DNA of 44,375 nucleotides, taken from Enterobacteria phage mEp237. Under the pieces are notes generated by a model, which did no database searches, had not been told where the DNA came from, and saw only the letters and a list, made by a program, of their open reading frames with translations. The stretch is taken from the sequence record NC_019704.1; one strand, written 5' to 3'. Position numbers and translations under genes: made by a program. Shown here in pieces: positions 8,379 to 34,806 of this stretch. Each line of letters opens with the position of its first letter. Position 1 is the first letter of the stretch.

Positions 8379-8773
8379 AACACAGCGATATTCGCAAGGT
8401 GATTATTGACGCGCTGGAAAGCGCGATTGGTACTGATGTCATTTATTTTGACGGCAGACCTGCAGTGCTCGAAGAGGGTGATTTTCCCGCTGTTGCCGTC
8501 TACCTGACAGATGCGGAATACACAGGGGAAGAACTGGACGCCGATAGCTGGCAGGCCATTCTGCATATCGAAGTCTTTCTTGAGGCTCAGGTACCTGATT
8601 CTGATCTGGATGACTGGATGGAGACGAGAGTGTATCCGGTTCTCGCAGAGGTTCCGGGGCTTGAATCTCTTATCACCACAATGGTTCAGCAGGGCTATGA
8701 CTACCAGCGCGATGACGATATGGCGCTGTGGAGTTCTGCCGACCTGAAATATTCCATTACTTACGACATGTGA
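8375..8773 (+). CDS. U: Tail terminator protein (lambda gpU homolog)
   Basis: 132 aa; strong similarity to lambda U (FDGRPAV...[18 protein letters not shown]); ATGA overlap with Z. Confidence 0.9.
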
Positions 8774-8780
8774 GGACCCT

Positions 8781-9518
8781 ATGGCCACACCAAACCCGCT
8801 GGCACCAACAAAAGGTGCTGGTACCACCCTCTGGGTTTACACCGGAACTGGTGATCCATACGCCAATCCGCTTTCAGACGTTGACTGGCTGCGCCTGGCA
8901 AAGATTAAAGACCTGCAGCCCGGAGAACTGACAGCTGAATCGGAAGATGACACCTACATCGATGATGAGAATGCCGACTGGACATCAACGATGCAGGGGC
9001 AGAAATCAGCCGGTGAAACAAACCTGACGCTCGCATGGATGCCGGAGGATTCCGGTCAGCAGGACCTGGTGAACTGGTTCGATGAAGGCACCGTGAAGGG
9101 GTATAAAATCAAATATCCGAATGGTGTTGTCGATGTCTTTAAGGGCTGGGTGAGCAGTCTCGGCAAGACCATCTCGTCTAAAGAGGTCATGACCCGCACG
9201 GCAAAAATCACCAACAATGGCAAACCATCGCTGGCCGAAGACAGTGGTACCGCGCCGATTGCCGTTACGGGGATCAGCCTGGATAAATCCACGGCGGCTG
9301 TGGCTGTCGCGGCCACGACGCAACTGGTTGTTTCTGTCCTGCCAGCAAGTGCTTCAGATAAGTCTTTCCGCGTAGCCAGTTCTGATCCGTCAAAAGCAAC
9401 GGTCACCGTCAGCGGCAATACCCTGACTGTTACCGGCGTGGCGGCAGGCACCGTCGAGATCATCGTAATGAGCAATGACGGTAACTTTGTGGCGATCTGC
9501 AAAGTCACTGTTTCCTGA
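8781..9518 (+). CDS. V: Major tail tube protein (lambda gpV homolog) with C-terminal Ig-like domain
   Basis: 245 aa; lambda V-like N-terminus; C-terminal Big_2-like segment ([21 protein letters not shown]). Confidence 0.92.
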
Positions 9519-29789: not shown

Positions 29790-30122
29790 GATGTTCTCCA
29801 GTTTTCTGAGTGAACTTCGCTGGTGGTGCCGTGACGCTGATCTTCACGGTTGAGCTTTTTCACTCTGCAATTCACCACCGCGAAGCTCACTTCTGTGTTT
29901 GCCCTTGTCGCCAGGCTGGCGGAACGTTTCAAACCTACTGCGCGTTAATCTCACCACCTCATTCCGGTTTTCGTATGCCCCGGACGGCTACTTCGTGGGC
30001 GTCCTGCCTCGGTGGTTGTGTTGATGGAGTAAGTAAAACACCGCTTTACCATTAAGTCAAGCAATGCAGATGCAAAAGGTAAAGCATAGCTGTATGTTGG
30101 GCGAAATTTATCCAGATTAGAG

Positions 30123-30374
30123 ATGATTGCATCAACTAAAAGTGTGTATGATGAAAAAAAACATCATTGGGGGTGGGATGTGGAAAAGTTCTACGTGGGT
30201 TACAACGATGTATGTCAGGCGGTAGGTAGAGCGACGCTGAATCTGATATCACATGGAGACGCGCCAACTACTGAGGCGATCATTTCAATACTTGAGTCGC
30301 TGGGGGATATTGAGCAGAACGATTTTTGGCGACAGGTGTTCAGGTTTGCAGCTGAGGAAGTGCGAAAAGGGTAG
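30123..30374 (+). CDS. Hypothetical protein, convergent with the three-gene operon
   Basis: 83-aa ORF ending 11 nt before the shared hairpin at 30385-30404; weak RBS. Confidence 0.4.
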   Translation: MIASTKSVYDEKKHHWGWDVEKFYVGYNDVCQAVGRATLNLISHGDAPTTEAIISILESLGDIEQNDFWRQVFRFAAEEVRKG

Positions 30375-30384
30375 GCAAAAGAAA

Positions 30385-30404
30385 CCCGGCGCGGTGGCCG
30401 GGTC
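30385..30404 (-). terminator. Terminator hairpin closing the minus-strand three-gene operon
   Basis: 7-bp stem ACCCGGC / GCCGGGT with 6-nt loop, 5 nt past the stop of the last gene; minus-strand downstream sequence is T-rich. Confidence 0.6.
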
Positions 30405-30408
30405 GATT

Positions 30409-30822
30409 CTACCCAAATGGTAGCTCAATATTCTTGATAGTTGTTGGCTTAAGTATTTGTTCACATTGTGTTTTAAAGAATATTTTTACGTTATATTCAA
30501 AGAACCATCGGTTTTCATCAAGTAATTCTGGTGTTAAATCGATACTGTCTGGATAAGTGAATACTAAACGTAAACCAAATTGCAGGTTAAACGTTTCATG
30601 GATTGCCCCATCACTGGTCGTGCTGAGACCTACAACCTTTGGGGAAGCAGTTATCTCAATTATACTTAGTGCTTCATCGGATTTTAATTTTTTACCGGCT
30701 TCGACAGTAATCTCACCGATCTCAGCTTCAAAATTGCCCCTATTAGTACCACTTTTCAAAGGGGTATGCTTGAAATGTATGTTGCTAGTGCTGACCTCAA
30801 TGAGCCTTATCTCTGATAACAT
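30409..30822 (-). CDS. Unknown protein, third gene of the AT-rich operon
   Basis: 137 aa; about 30% GC; overlaps the preceding gene by 16 nt; no family recognised. Confidence 0.65.
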   Translation of the reverse strand: MLSEIRLIEVSTSNIHFKHTPLKSGTNRGNFEAEIGEITVEAGKKLKSDEALSIIEITASPKVVGLSTTSDGAIHETFNLQFGLRLVFTYPDSIDLTPELLDENRWFFEYNVKIFFKTQCEQILKPTTIKNIELPFG

Positions 30823-31253
30823 AAAATACCCACATCATTGTTGTCGTTGCTAGAGCCAAACTTACTTCCTATCACAAAGCGCACAATTTTTGTTTCACTA
30901 GTATCTTTCAGTTCGGGTTCACTAGTCTCATATTGCCTTAATGGTGGAATGATGTGATGTGAGACATCAACCCCATTTCTGAAAACAGAGACCCTTGCTT
31001 CAGCACCCAGTGCGTATGATATGTCGGATAATGTTCTCAGGGTCATGTTTCTGGTTCCATCAAGCAGCTGCGAAACATGGGAAGGTGATTTACCAAGTTT
31101 CCTGGCAAGCTCACCTTTGGTGATGCCTGCATCTTGCATGGCTAGTAGGAGATCCTCCGTGGTGTTGAACACCAATCGTTCGGAAGCCATCTCCCTTTCA
31201 CTGACATAGGGAAGTTCGAAAACTTCGCCTGCAGAATTGTTGTCAACAGTCAT
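30807..31253 (-). CDS. XRE-family HTH protein with N- and C-terminal extensions, second gene of the operon
   Basis: 148 aa; HTH_3-like core (ITKGELARKLGKSPSHVSQLLDGTRNMTLRTLSDISYALG); GAGAGAGGA RBS; overlaps both neighbours. Confidence 0.75.
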   Translation of the reverse strand: MTVDNNSAGEVFELPYVSEREMASERLVFNTTEDLLLAMQDAGITKGELARKLGKSPSHVSQLLDGTRNMTLRTLSDISYALGAEARVSVFRNGVDVSHHIIPPLRQYETSEPELKDTSETKIVRFVIGSKFGSSNDNNDVGILCYQR

Positions 31254-31650
31254 CTAATCCTCTCTCGATTCGTTCCCAGTTGTTACGGACCTTCTGGGTA
31301 TCAGAATCACTTAGGTCATCAAAATCCTTGTAGATGTAATGACTTATGAAATAAGTCATGAATACTCTTTCTGACTCCCAGTAATAACCTCTGATGGGTA
31401 TCTTCTTTATAGCCCAAAAATTTTTGCTGGGTTTTCCATTGTAAGAAGGTAAAACCCCCTCCTTTCTAACACTTAGGTCGGGAGTCCTCTTACCAGAGGC
31501 TAATCGCTCTATTTGTAGTCTAAGATTGACTACCATAGTTTTTTGCTTTTTGGCTGGAGTCACGCTCCGGATGACATCAGATAGCGTTTTAAGAGCCCCA
31601 TTACAATGAGTTACTGTGAAGCAGTTACCTTTAAATGTATGTTGAACCAT
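31243..31650 (-). CDS. Unknown protein, first gene of the operon
   Basis: 135 aa; AT-rich; palindromic operator-like element upstream; no family recognised (RelE/HigB-like fold is only a guess). Confidence 0.65.
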   Translation of the reverse strand: MVQHTFKGNCFTVTHCNGALKTLSDVIRSVTPAKKQKTMVVNLRLQIERLASGKRTPDLSVRKEGVLPSYNGKPSKNFWAIKKIPIRGYYWESERVFMTYFISHYIYKDFDDLSDSDTQKVRNNWERIERGLDDC

Positions 31651-31662
31651 CTACTAATCCAT

Positions 31663-31682
31663 AGTTAACATATATATTAACT
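31663..31682. promoter_or_regulatory. Near-palindromic operator-like element upstream of the three-gene operon
   Basis: AGTTAACATATATATTAACT: 20-bp dyad with two mismatches, 13-32 bp upstream of the first start codon. Confidence 0.5.
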
Positions 31683-31929
31683 CACAAAATGCACGCGAGC
31701 CACCATCATCGTACACAGATAATCCAAAATCGTTGTTAGCAACTTAGCTACCCCACTATGGTAGCGGCTGCGATTGTTGACAGACGAAGCTCACCTTTAT
31801 TTCCAAGATTCATGTGCTTAGAATAAAAAAACATCTAGGACTTCAGGAAAAGCACATAGATGCGGTACATATTTTGTTGCTCTTCTTCTGGTTGTTAGCG
31901 ATAAAACTCACAAAACTTACTTTTCCGCT

Positions 31930-32121
31930 TCACAATAACACCATTACTGTAACCACTACGAATGCTATCAATAGCACTGCCATAACGATGACCGCAAAAG
32001 TTGTTGAGTCCTTAAAGTAAGTCTTTTCATGCCCATTCACAGGACCAATGAGCATGATCCAGATGAAAATGAAGGTAAAGCAAAGAACAGCGATGGAAAT
32101 TAAAAACAGGCCAGTTTTCAA
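31930..32121 (-). CDS. Small membrane protein (two predicted TM helices), TTG start
   Basis: 63 aa, strongly hydrophobic (LFLISIAVLCFTFIFIWIMLIGPV ... FAVIVMAVLLIAFVVVTVMVLL); GAGGGA RBS; sits directly downstream of the repressor genes. Confidence 0.5.
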   Translation of the reverse strand: MKTGLFLISIAVLCFTFIFIWIMLIGPVNGHEKTYFKDSTTFAVIVMAVLLIAFVVVTVMVLL

Positions 32122-32153
32122 TAATGTCCCTCGCCATTTTCATCAGATGCTAC

Positions 32154-32546
32154 TTACTCAGAATCACCCTTAATCCGCCGCCCCATATACTTGGCGTACA
32201 GTTCATCGAGTTCCTTCAGGCGCAGTGATACCGCCTTAAGAACTCCACTCTGATCCTCTTCGGGGAGTTGACGGAAAAAACGTAAAAGCTCTTGCTCATT
32301 ACTTTTTAATCCATCATTGGGCCCTATATCCTGCCCCAAAACCCAGGCTAAATTCACACCAAGCGCATCAGCTAGCTTAAGTGCGGAGTTTTTTCCAATA
32401 GTTCCCCTTACAAACCAGTTGTTAACCGACTGGGATGTTACGCCACAAATTCTGGCCAGATCTGCTTTTGAGAGATGTTTACTATTCGTGATCTCATTGA
32501 GTCGTCTGACCTGTGGGTTATCTGATTCGTGTGTATTTTTTCTCAT
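32154..32546 (-). CDS. DicA/RacR-like HTH repressor paralog (no peptidase domain)
   Basis: N-terminal XRE HTH (LSKADLARICGVTSQSVNNWF) and C-terminal LPEEDQ...LRLKELDELYAKYM segment shared with the adjacent paralog; start taken at internal ATG. Confidence 0.75.
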   Translation of the reverse strand: MRKNTHESDNPQVRRLNEITNSKHLSKADLARICGVTSQSVNNWFVRGTIGKNSALKLADALGVNLAWVLGQDIGPNDGLKSNEQELLRFFRQLPEEDQSGVLKAVSLRLKELDELYAKYMGRRIKGDSE

Positions 32547-32565
32547 GTACAAGAGTATCACTTAG

Positions 32566-32949
32566 CTAATCAGCATCGCCCCTGATTCTGCGATTCATGT
32601 ACTTGGCATATAGTTCATCGAGTTCCTTCAGACGCAGGGAGAAGATCCTTATCATATTCTGCTGTTCTTCTTCCGGTAACTGTCTGTAGAGCTCCAGAAT
32701 ACGTTGTTCATCAGGCTTAAGGCCATCCTTCTCTCCAACATCCTCACCAAGTAGCCAGGGGACGGATACCCCAGCAGCATCAGCAACCGCTAATGCAGAA
32801 CTTTTGCTGATTCTTCCTGTTTTGAACCAACTGGAAACAGCTTGCTTACTGACGCCAGCAACCCTGGCCATCTCTGTTTTAGAGAAACCTTTCCGGTTCA
32901 GTTCTGTAAGCCTGGAGATCAGCCCAGTAGTCATTGTGTTTTCGCTCAT
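32566..32949 (-). CDS. DicA/RacR-like phage repressor (CI analog without S24 peptidase domain)
   Basis: HTH (FSKTEMARVAGVSKQAVSSWF) plus C-terminal LPEEEQ...LRLKELDELYAKYM domain; divergent from the cro-like gene; start could be 32934, 32949 or 33033. Confidence 0.8.
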   Translation of the reverse strand: MSENTMTTGLISRLTELNRKGFSKTEMARVAGVSKQAVSSWFKTGRISKSSALAVADAAGVSVPWLLGEDVGEKDGLKPDEQRILELYRQLPEEEQQNMIRIFSLRLKELDELYAKYMNRRIRGDAD

Positions 32950-32958
32950 TTCACTAGT

Positions 32959-33024
32959 GTAAATGATTGCTTTACCAGTAGGTAGGCATTCATTGATTGA
33001 CTCATTGGTAAAATGATGCTTTAC
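32959..33024. promoter_or_regulatory. Divergent immunity promoter/operator region with two dyad-symmetric operator-like sites
   Basis: GTAAATGATTGCTTTAC (32959-32975) and GTAAAATGATGCTTTAC (33008-33024), each GTAAA-N-TTTAC, 49 bp apart; candidate -35 TTGACT at 32997-33002. Confidence 0.55.
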
Positions 33025-33046
33025 TTTTTCCATCTAAGGAGGTCCT

Positions 33047-33271
33047 ATGACTGGTATTGAGAAAGCTATTCAAAAGTTTGGCACAGGTGCGGCACTCGGA
33101 AGAGCGCTTGGATTTTCAAAAATGACAATTTCCAACTGGAAGAAAACTGGCATTCCGCCCGATCACATTCGCTCTGTTTTTGAGCTTACGGGAGTCACCC
33201 CGCATGAGTTGCGGCCTGACTTATATCCCAATCCAACCGATGCCTTACCAGTGCAAGAAACGAGGGCATAA
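33047..33271 (+). CDS. Cro-like / YdaS-family HTH regulator
   Basis: 74 aa; divergent from the repressor; YdaS/Cro-like pattern (GTGAALGRALGFSKMTISNWKKTG...ELRPDLYP); AGGAGG RBS. Confidence 0.8.
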   Translation: MTGIEKAIQKFGTGAALGRALGFSKMTISNWKKTGIPPDHIRSVFELTGVTPHELRPDLYPNPTDALPVQETRA

Positions 33272-33273
33272 CC

Positions 33274-33813
33274 ATGCAGTCACTGTCACTTCATCAAAAT
33301 AGCGGATATCAACCGGCTGCGATGATAAATCGCAATCAACCTGTCTCGGTAGATAAACATGACCAGATCCGCGATGCCGTTCGTGCGTGGGCGGGTGTAG
33401 ATGGTCAGGATGTCGTTTCTGCTCTGATCATCGAAGAGTACCAGGCTCAAGGGGGAGACGAGATCACTTTCCCTGATGACCTCAGCCGACAGCGTCAGAA
33501 GCTTTTCCGCTTTCTGGATAACCATTTCAACAGCGAACGGTACCGCGAAAACGTTCGCCAGCTGACTCCGGCAATCCTCGCTGTCCTGCCGATTGAATAC
33601 CGCAATCGTCTGCTACCAGAAGACAACGTAATGGCTCGTCTGGCAAGGCTGGAGAAGGAAACCAGCGAAGCGAAGATTGCTGTCGCAATGGATGCGCCAC
33701 GTCATCAGAAGCTGAAAGAGTTGAGCGAGGGGATCGTGGAGATGTATCGCGTTGACCCTGGGTTAACCGGTCCGTTGATGGAAATGGTGCAGATTATGCT
33801 GGGGGCTATATGA
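33274..33813 (+). CDS. CII-like / YdaT-like early regulator
   Basis: 179 aa at the cII position between cro-like and O; family assignment from memory only. Confidence 0.5.
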   Translation: MQSLSLHQNSGYQPAAMINRNQPVSVDKHDQIRDAVRAWAGVDGQDVVSALIIEEYQAQGGDEITFPDDLSRQRQKLFRFLDNHFNSERYRENVRQLTPAILAVLPIEYRNRLLPEDNVMARLARLEKETSEAKIAVAMDAPRHQKLKELSEGIVEMYRVDPGLTGPLMEMVQIMLGAI

Positions 33814-33897
33814 CCGGTTCAAAAATGGCGAAAGCCGCGGTGCTCGAACACCAACGGCTTTCAGGTGCAAAAACAGTGCGTAATTGCGGAGAACAGT

Positions 33898-34806
33898 ATG
33901 TCAAACACCGCTGAAATAATCAATTTCCCAAATAAAACCGAACAACCGGGAGGTCGTATGGCCGACCTGTCGAACGGGTATACCAAGGTCGCTAACGAGA
34001 TCCAACAGCTTAAGCCTCGCCTGAGACTGTCAGGCCGGGAATGGCAATGTTTTGAGGCGGTGATCTGGCTTACCTACGGCTGGAACAAGAAACAGGACCG
34101 CGTGACAAATACGGTTATTGCCGAGCTTACGGGCCTGAGCGATACGCATGTATCGGACGCGCTTAAGTCTCTCGCAGAACGCAAAATCATCTTTTCACAG
34201 AAGCAGGGCATGATGAAAATCGTCGGTGTAAACACTGACCTTTCAGCATGGATTTTAGACAAACCGGAAACGGGAAGAAAATTCCCGAAAACGGGAAAAT
34301 CCTTCCCGAAATCAGGAATAACCTTCCCGAAAACGGTAGACACCCAATACAAGAACAAGAACAGTATTAAAAGATCTTCGTCCGAGAATTCTGACGAATC
34401 CTCTGACGCACGTCTGAAGAAATTTTTATCAACTCATCCTGAAGCTGCGGTCTACACACCATCCGGTGCGAAGTGGGGCTCTGCTGAAGACCTCGAGACA
34501 GCTAAGTGGATTTCCTCCAGGGTAAAGCTGATTAACCCAACCTGCAAAGCCCCGGACATGACCTCCTGGTCTAACACTGTTCGCCTGATGCGCCAGATAG
34601 ACAACCGGTCGCACCAGGACATCTGCGCGCTGTATGACTGGGCTAGCAAACACCACTTCTGGCAGACCAACATCCTGAGTCCCGAAAGCCTGCGTAAGCA
34701 GTGGGACAAGCTGACAATGCAGCGTAACGCCGGAGGTGAGCAGCGCGCTGTCAAGCCAGATCTGGACTTCAACAACACTGACTGGGCCTATGGGGTGATC
34801 CGATGA
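33898..34806 (+). CDS. O: Replication initiator (lambda gpO homolog)
   Basis: Start MSNTAEIINF... with GGAGA RBS matches the lambda O N-terminus (MTNTAKILNF); iterons inside the gene. Confidence 0.88.
   Translation: MSNTAEIINFPNKTEQPGGRMADLSNGYTKVANEIQQLKPRLRLSGREWQCFEAVIWLTYGWNKKQDRVTNTVIAELTGLSDTHVSDALKSLAERKIIFSQKQGMMKIVGVNTDLSAWILDKPETGRKFPKTGKSFPKSGITFPKTVDTQYKNKNSIKRSSSENSDESSDARLKKFLSTHPEAAVYTPSGAKWGSAEDLETAKWISSRVKLINPTCKAPDMTSWSNTVRLMRQIDNRSHQDICALYDWASKHHFWQTNILSPESLRKQWDKLTMQRNAGGEQRAVKPDLDFNNTDWAYGVIR
34262..34340. repeat. Origin of replication iterons inside the O gene
   Basis: Four about 20-bp direct repeats with core TTCCCGAAAACGG at roughly 34264, 34282, 34303 and 34324, followed by A/T-richer sequence. 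Confidence 0.8.

Follow-up and report, generated by a model that had tools for sequence, protein, structure and literature searches.

The DNA analysed here, referred to as the window, comprises 44,375 nucleotides of Enterobacteria phage mEp237 (NC_019704.1), a lambdoid phage with a backbone like that of HK225 and phi80. It carries a block of three open reading frames on the minus strand, designated g1, g2 and g3 (Table 1), which overlap by 11 nt (g1/g2) and 16 nt (g2/g3), exactly as the initial annotation had reported. An intrinsic terminator, also proposed in that annotation and found as a hairpin with a T-run read from 30404 to 30383, begins 5 nt past the g3 stop codon and consists of a stem of 8 bp with 6 GC pairs, a loop of 6 nt and a T-rich tail (GACCCGGCCACCGCGCCGGGTT, TCTTTTGCCT). 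The block was further described as strikingly AT-rich. It is indeed the lowest-GC part of the window, ranking fourth lowest among 863 sliding windows of equal length, but the proposed value of about 30% was wrong, since its GC content is 40.7% (40.0% for g1, 44.1% for g2 and 37.2% for g3) against a window mean of 51.4%.

Table 1. Coordinates of the three-gene block and of the features surrounding it in the window
Feature	Position	Strand	Description
g1, predicted toxin	31243-31650	minus	135 aa
g2, predicted antitoxin and autorepressor	30807-31253	minus	148 aa
HTH DNA-binding domain of g2	30999-31142	minus	residues 38-85; Pfam and PADLOC HTH matches
Putative ChAD-like tail of g2	30810-30977	minus	residues 93-148, ~57 aa; sequence pattern and co-inheritance with g3
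g3, predicted SecB-like chaperone	30409-30822	minus	137 aa
Intrinsic terminator closing the operon	30383-30404	minus	hairpin and T-run
Operator-like palindrome	31663-31682		inverted repeat upstream of g1; minus-strand sequence AGTTAATATATATGTTAACT
Candidate g2 target	at the palindrome		GTTAATATATATGTTAAC
AT-rich spacer, repressor gene to g1	31651-32153		~500 nt, 39% GC
Spacer ORF	31930-32121	minus	63 aa, very hydrophobic, TTG start
Spacer inverted repeat	31812-31819 / 31850-31857		8 nt
First CI-like HTH repressor gene	32154-32561	minus	135 aa
Second CI-like HTH repressor gene	32566-33033	minus	155 aa
Small ORF	30123-30374	plus	83 aa, convergent on the terminator
Portable unit	30367-32231		terminator, three genes, operator, spacer and final ~78 nt of the neighbouring repressor gene

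The block is bordered on the left by ydaE, kilR and recE. On the right, two CI-like repressor genes lie directly upstream of it on the same strand (32154-33033) and are followed by YdaS/YdaT-type genes and the O/P replication genes, in agreement with the earlier placement of the block between the recombination genes and the immunity region. The two repressor genes are tandem paralogues, their products being 55% identical over 118 aa, and may represent a duplicated or dual-immunity region. Among prophages carrying the same operon, a single repressor gene (127-131 aa) is present in loci L001-L003 and L005, and both are present in L004 and L006. At the left edge of the block, the 83-aa open reading frame is another small variable gene, replaced in L001 by an unrelated 69-aa DUF2767 gene. 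The AT-rich spacer between the repressor genes and g1 contains a short inverted repeat and a 63-aa open reading frame, which was considered as a fourth component and rejected, being absent outside close relatives.

Upstream of g1, the near-palindrome that had been noted as operator-like is made of two arms of 10 nt, AGTTAACATA and TATATTAACT, which are 90% complementary, and its core (GTTAAyATATAyrTTAAC) ends 3-4 nt ahead of the g1 Shine-Dalgarno sequence. Of the 26 distinct versions of the triad, 23 carry the same 18-bp motif, 19-37 nt ahead of the called g1 start; one of the three versions without it has no upstream DNA in its locus. The motif is kept even in Klebsiella, Raoultella, Serratia and Shewanella, while the DNA on either side of it cannot be aligned from one genus to another. 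Type II toxin-antitoxin operons are autoregulated. On the sequence pattern, the 18-bp palindrome is probably the operator bound by the HTH protein g2. A scan for consensus sigma-70 promoters upstream of g1 returned none.

Contigs with close or distant homologues of g1 yielded 43 loci, representing 26 distinct versions; they come from E. coli, Klebsiella, Raoultella, Serratia and Shewanella and include 28 IMG/VR viral contigs. The order of the genes (g1, HTH gene, third gene of 132-170 aa) is kept in all 43 loci, with reading frames that overlap or abut. Because the triad is whole in every locus and the dN/dS ratio of g1 between relatives is 0.03-0.10, the three open reading frames are real genes and not chance ones. 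A DNA search of 50,697 phage records and 5,426 complete E. coli genomes did not detect the operon in any of them. At the protein level, clustering of the toxin at 90% identity gives about 57 clusters, spread over Enterobacterales and Shewanella, and about 400 blocks of the public assembly collection contain the exact g1 sequence.

The g1 protein is 100% identical to mEp237_036, annotated as 'hypothetical protein'. The initial annotation had stated that g1 and g3 match no recognisable family, which holds for their sequences. For g1, no Pfam family was found at E ≤ 1, no match was obtained in NCBIfam or PADLOC, and PHROGs returned nothing informative. None of the 33 homologues of g1 matched a RelE, HigB or Gp49 model at E ≤ 10, their other Pfam matches being noise, and a profile built from these 33 sequences found nothing among PDB sequences at E ≤ 10. 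The statement does not hold for the folds. Structure prediction and fold search, an approach suggested with the initial annotation, placed g1 among the Gp49-like HigB toxins of the RelE/ParE superfamily: the predicted structure shows the RelE fold, in which four antiparallel strands are accompanied by a long helix, alpha3, at the C-terminus. Since neither g1 nor g3 has a significant sequence match in Pfam, NCBIfam, PADLOC or the PDB, both assignments rest on the predicted structures of the window's own proteins.

Of the three proteins, g1 shows the highest conservation, and its low dN/dS ratio shows that it is under strong purifying selection. Twenty-nine residues are invariant among the 33 homologues, and the sheet carries the invariant or nearly invariant R62, E64, K82, R87, H104, Y105 and K108. 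These may include counterparts of the catalytic basic residues of HigB1 (K58/R68/R77/K95/K99). By analogy with toxins of this fold, g1 is most likely a ribosome-dependent mRNA endonuclease.

The g2 protein is the sole member of the triad recognisable by sequence. It contains the XRE-type HTH anticipated in the initial annotation (PF01381, E 2e-6, residues 39-83; PF13443, E 1.3e-5), is weakly similar to antitoxins of the HigA and HipB types, and matches phrog_1373, a transcriptional regulator (1.9e-12). The PADLOC search suggested alongside the structure searches returned the HTH of g2: g2 matched the PDC-M64B/C models (5e-10, residues 38-85), but g1 and g3 matched no PADLOC model, and membership in PDC-M64 was rejected on that ground. 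We predict that g2 is both the antitoxin and the autorepressor of the operon.

The layout of g2 comprises a conserved N-terminal segment with the HTH (residues about 1-92), followed by a variable C-terminal tail. In the window, this tail displays a DVSHxIxP linker, Y108, a hydrophobic beta-strand (IVRFVIG, residues 123-129), F132 and Y146. A common plan, consisting of the DVSHxIxP linker, an aromatic residue, an [IV]x[IV]x[IV] strand and an aromatic residue near the C-terminus, recurs in almost every distinct tail of the alignment. This pattern resembles the aromatic, aggregation-prone features of the chaperone-addiction (ChAD) elements of HigA from the HigBAC system of E. coli NT1F31. The tail is thus a putative ChAD-like element, and its dependence on g3 would follow the behaviour described for characterised antitoxins (PMC5105189; Mets et al. 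preprint, bioRxiv 10.1101/2024.02.24.581848).

The third gene had been regarded as a second toxin candidate. Its predicted structure argues instead for a chaperone. An AF2 model of g3, obtained with 19 sequences, reached a pLDDT of 90.9 and shows a beta-sheet followed by a long helix. The top 19 PDB matches returned by Foldseek were all SecB or SecB-like, the best being Rv1957, the chaperone of the M. tuberculosis toxin-antitoxin-chaperone (TAC) system, in complex with the HigA1 ChAD peptide (5mtw, E 5e-5, probability 1.0), followed by the SecB proteins of H. influenzae and E. coli. Based on this model, g3 is predicted to be a SecB-like chaperone, analogous to SecB-TA and HigC. Its sequence matched nothing in Pfam, NCBIfam or PADLOC, and its PHROG match, phrog_19522, is of unknown function. 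Its sequence does not place g3 in the family of housekeeping SecB, which binds SecA in protein export, as the Pfam SecB model is unmatched by g3 and by 18 relatives. A word-indexed protein search recovered two relatives of g3 and an exhaustive HMMER search 19; re-searching with the profile added few, all 'hypothetical', and the profile of the 19 short-type sequences found nothing among PDB sequences at E ≤ 10.

A longer third gene, of 158-170 aa, occurs in distant triads (L007 from Shewanella and L041-L044); its product contains an acidic insertion and, in the C-terminal part, a motif clearly like that of SecB-TA (NNVGYHVWPYWREY). The profile of these five long-type proteins gave a single match among 177,635 PDB sequences, Rv1957 (E 0.0028), spanning the C-terminal helix motif of SecB (WPYWREY...P). 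Comparison of the short-type and long-type profiles with hhalign yielded no significant alignment (probability 0.9%). The two types, which may or may not be orthologous, could reflect extreme divergence, or the replacement of one SecB-like chaperone by another.

The TAC class has been known since 2011, from M. tuberculosis. A TAC is recognised by a co-oriented, linked toxin-antitoxin-chaperone order, a type II toxin fold (HigB/RelE, MqsR, HicA or ART), a chaperone of SecB fold and a ChAD extension of the antitoxin and, in its function, by a toxin-antitoxin pair that is toxic unless the chaperone is present to restore neutralisation. The operon displays this gene order and, in the predicted structures, both the toxin fold and the chaperone fold. 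Because the predicted fold of g1 is that of a Gp49-like HigB and that of g3 is SecB-like, the block is very probably a TAC module. The earlier view of a toxin-antitoxin-like module, with the HTH protein as antitoxin or regulator, is thereby supported; the suggestion of an undescribed kind of system is not, as the predicted folds place the operon in a known class.

Comparison of the 26 versions revealed that the parts of the triad diverge at different rates. Mean pairwise identity is 59% for g1 and 57% for the N-terminus and HTH of g2, against 28% for the g2 tail and 34% for g3, making the tail and the chaperone the fastest-diverging parts. While dS is saturated in most pairs, L025 and L027 form one pair with unsaturated, comparable dS values, and here non-synonymous change relative to g1 was about four times faster in the tail and about three times faster in g3. 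In Mantel tests, all four parts correlated alike (0.67-0.84), and the tail-chaperone correlation (Spearman 0.78) was no stronger than the general phylogenetic one. As this test could not separate covariation from phylogeny, the real evidence for co-inheritance of tail and chaperone comes from mosaics. Between the window and L021, g1 is 92% and the N-terminal part of g2 77% identical, with only 28% identity in the tail and 26% in g3; DNA homology stops at 30961, about residue 97 of g2, which is the HTH/tail junction. The reverse arrangement was observed between L013 and L038, in which the tail is 98% and g3 100% identical (dS 0.04) and the dS of g1 is 0.47. In two independent mosaics, tail and chaperone were thus inherited together, apart from the toxin and HTH.

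As the breakpoints fall at the HTH/tail junction in both mosaics, tail and SecB-like chaperone might constitute an exchangeable 'sensor cassette', swapped among conserved toxin/HTH 'warheads', a tentative reading that we regard as rather doubtful. If true, the family would vary the phage protein that triggers it by cassette exchange, as a natural counterpart of the engineered CmdTA-HigC hybrid (Mets et al.), and would offer ready-made chaperone variants for mapping trigger specificity.

The operon itself also travels as a unit. A segment delimited by the terminator and the last nucleotides of the adjacent repressor gene (Table 1) is 98.8% identical to L001, the flanks of which are 70-90% identical or unalignable. 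The right-hand break at 32231 recurs in L017 and L020. It leaves within the unit the 3′ end of the repressor gene (32154-32231), in a C-terminal segment conserved among different repressors. This suggests that the cassette moves between immunity types by recombination through a conserved repressor coding segment. HK225 (L045), the phage with the closest backbone, shows no homology to window positions 29798-33895. At its own positions 8433-9379, between kil and cI, it encodes homologues of HK97 Gp48 and Gp49, a Gp49-type HigBA-like pair occupying a slot equivalent to 29800-33900 of the window. The slot recurrently hosts HigB-type toxin-antitoxin modules, with or without a chaperone, and the earlier description of the block as acquired accessory cargo in an exclusion or defence slot is supported.

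A mechanism can be proposed that joins the gene structure, coupling, predicted folds, conserved operator and triad, purifying selection and tail/chaperone co-inheritance computed here to the properties of two characterised systems, the M. tuberculosis TAC (PMC5105189, PMC6377645, PMC9098466) and NT1F31 HigBAC (bioRxiv 10.1101/2024.02.24.581848), on which toxicity, neutralisation, chaperone addiction, trigger and defence role are modelled. In a lysogen, the overlapping genes would ensure that all three proteins are made together, with the toxin kept silent. The N-terminal part of g2 and its XRE HTH would neutralise g1 and repress the operon through the 18-bp palindrome, and the variable tail would render g2 unstable or aggregation-prone unless held by g3. 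During infection by a foreign phage, an abundant phage protein would compete for the client groove of g3, causing the antitoxin to fail. Freed g1, cleaving mRNA on the ribosome, would then stop translation, and the infection would abort. A HigB-HigA-SecB-type TAC acting in this way, which the prophage carries as cargo directly on the downstream side of its repressor genes, is in our judgement the best explanation of the locus, with a probability of roughly 0.7. As to function, we lean slightly towards anti-phage defence as its main role, by analogy with NT1F31 HigBAC and because the triad occupies a position equivalent to the slot of that system.

The role, more than the class, is where another reading deserves weight. 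The operon could be a genuine TAC serving mainly to stabilise the prophage or the locus by addiction, or to control growth of the lysogen in response to stress. The founding TAC, that of M. tuberculosis, was characterised as responding to stress and was not linked to phage (PMC3581621, PMC5105189), type II modules on mobile elements are classical addiction modules, and the 1.9-kb unit is passed from prophage to prophage as a discrete cassette. The defence role, moreover, is drawn from analogy, and PADLOC recognises neither g1 nor g3. However, the slot downstream of the repressor is a classical exclusion and defence hotspot, and the sole TAC tested from the same slot defends against lambda-vir and Bas25. 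The fast joint diversification of tail and chaperone, under strong purifying selection elsewhere in the triad, also fits an arms race with variable triggers better than simple addiction. We consider stabilisation or growth control unlikely as the main role.

Readings outside a functional TAC fare worse. A mere regulatory cassette, in which g1 would be a degenerate, non-toxic HigB-like protein, g2 only a transcription factor and g3 a general or morphogenetic phage chaperone, has a precedent in HigB2 and HigB3 of M. tuberculosis, which are non-toxic despite the same fold (PMC9098466), and would be compatible with the catalytic residues of g1 being no more than candidates and with the other clients that SecB-fold proteins can have (PMC4257090). 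It is highly improbable given that g1 is the most conserved protein, retains invariant basic and aromatic residues on its sheet (R87, H104, Y105 and K108) and evolves under the low dN/dS ratio given above, and that the toxin-antitoxin-chaperone order with overlaps is strict in 43 of 43 loci. A role in phage morphogenesis is further opposed by the Shewanella L007 triad, which has no recognisable phage genes in the 4 kb upstream. The lack of sequence-family matches for g1 and g3 in Pfam, NCBIfam, PADLOC and the PDB might also suggest a three-gene defence system of an entirely new category, with no relation to known families; this is hardly credible, as each of the three proteins can be assigned, by fold or sequence, to a TAC component, and their order is the canonical one.

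The TAC reading bears on a class of anti-phage immunity, encoded by prophages and validated only recently, whose sensor is the chaperone. The family is invisible to sequence searches of Pfam, NCBIfam, PADLOC and the PDB, so annotation pipelines and defence finders miss such TACs, and recognising it widens their known diversity. With a conserved toxin and a hypervariable chaperone and tail, it provides natural variants for studying how chaperone sensors gain phage specificities. The novelty lies in the sequence family, which is recognised by no library tested; the TAC kind itself is known, no new principle is revealed, and a TAC in a repressor-adjacent slot will not surprise a specialist.

Among known systems, HigBAC of E. 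coli NT1F31 shares the genomic setting and is the experimentally supported model for the mechanism. Work published in 2024 established it as a TAC with anti-phage activity in precisely this prophage slot of E. coli (bioRxiv 10.1101/2024.02.24.581848), in which HigC senses the lambda major tail protein gpV (Mets et al. 2024, same preprint; Cell Host Microbe 32:1059). We took this locus from the NT1F31 genome by means of the DNA fragment in Dataset S1 of that paper and compared the two systems component by component. Both have overlapping toxin, antitoxin and chaperone genes with their own terminator, in a lambdoid prophage slot immediately downstream of the repressor gene. The components differ. 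NT1F31 HigB has 95 aa and matches PF09907 at 1.3e-30, whereas g1 has 135 aa and no Pfam match, and hhalign detected no similarity between them (probability 0.3%). NT1F31 HigA has 218 aa, with a 96-aa ChAD bearing four aromatic motifs, against the 148 aa of g2, its tail of ~57 aa and 2-3 aromatic positions; BLASTP aligned the two in the HTH region only (E 1.2). The g3 profile aligned with NT1F31 HigC in the C-terminal helix only, over 30 columns (probability 18.7%). Membership in the NT1F31 HigBAC family was rejected, there being no significant sequence similarity of components. Of the 5,426 complete E. coli genomes, 90 contain the NT1F31 HigBAC region and none the TAC of the window. PGAP labels the validated HigC chaperone 'hypothetical protein'.

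Several other systems share single traits with the triad. HigBA pairs of the HK97 Gp49/Gp48 type (S. pneumoniae HigBA, 6af3/6af4) have two genes and neither a chaperone nor a chaperone-dependent tail, and, unlike the toxins of that family, g1 has no score against the Pfam Gp49-like model. CmdTAC from E. coli O112ab:H26 is also a prophage-borne anti-phage TAC with a SecB-like chaperone (PMC11618068), but its toxin is an mRNA ADP-ribosyltransferase, whereas g1 is a predicted RNase of RelE fold. RexAB and SieB of lambda occupy a like position, as lysogen-expressed accessory genes beside the immunity region, with no sequence or fold similarity to the triad and a different mechanism. In the literature searched, as far as its accessible parts extend, no description of this TAC family was found; it may be among the unnamed 'TAC-like systems in Enterobacteriaceae' of Figure S1A in Mets et al. 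2024.

Compared with the M. tuberculosis TAC (Rv1955 HigB1 - Rv1956 HigA1 - Rv1957 SecB-TA), identity in structural alignments is 7-12% and the tail sequences are unrelated. The two also differ in setting, an enterobacterial prophage here and a mycobacterial chromosome there, and the latter system has been described as stress-responsive and not as phage defence. In its predicted folds, a Gp49-like HigB, an XRE HigA and a SecB-TA, the triad of the window is nevertheless closer to the M. tuberculosis TAC than to HigBAC.
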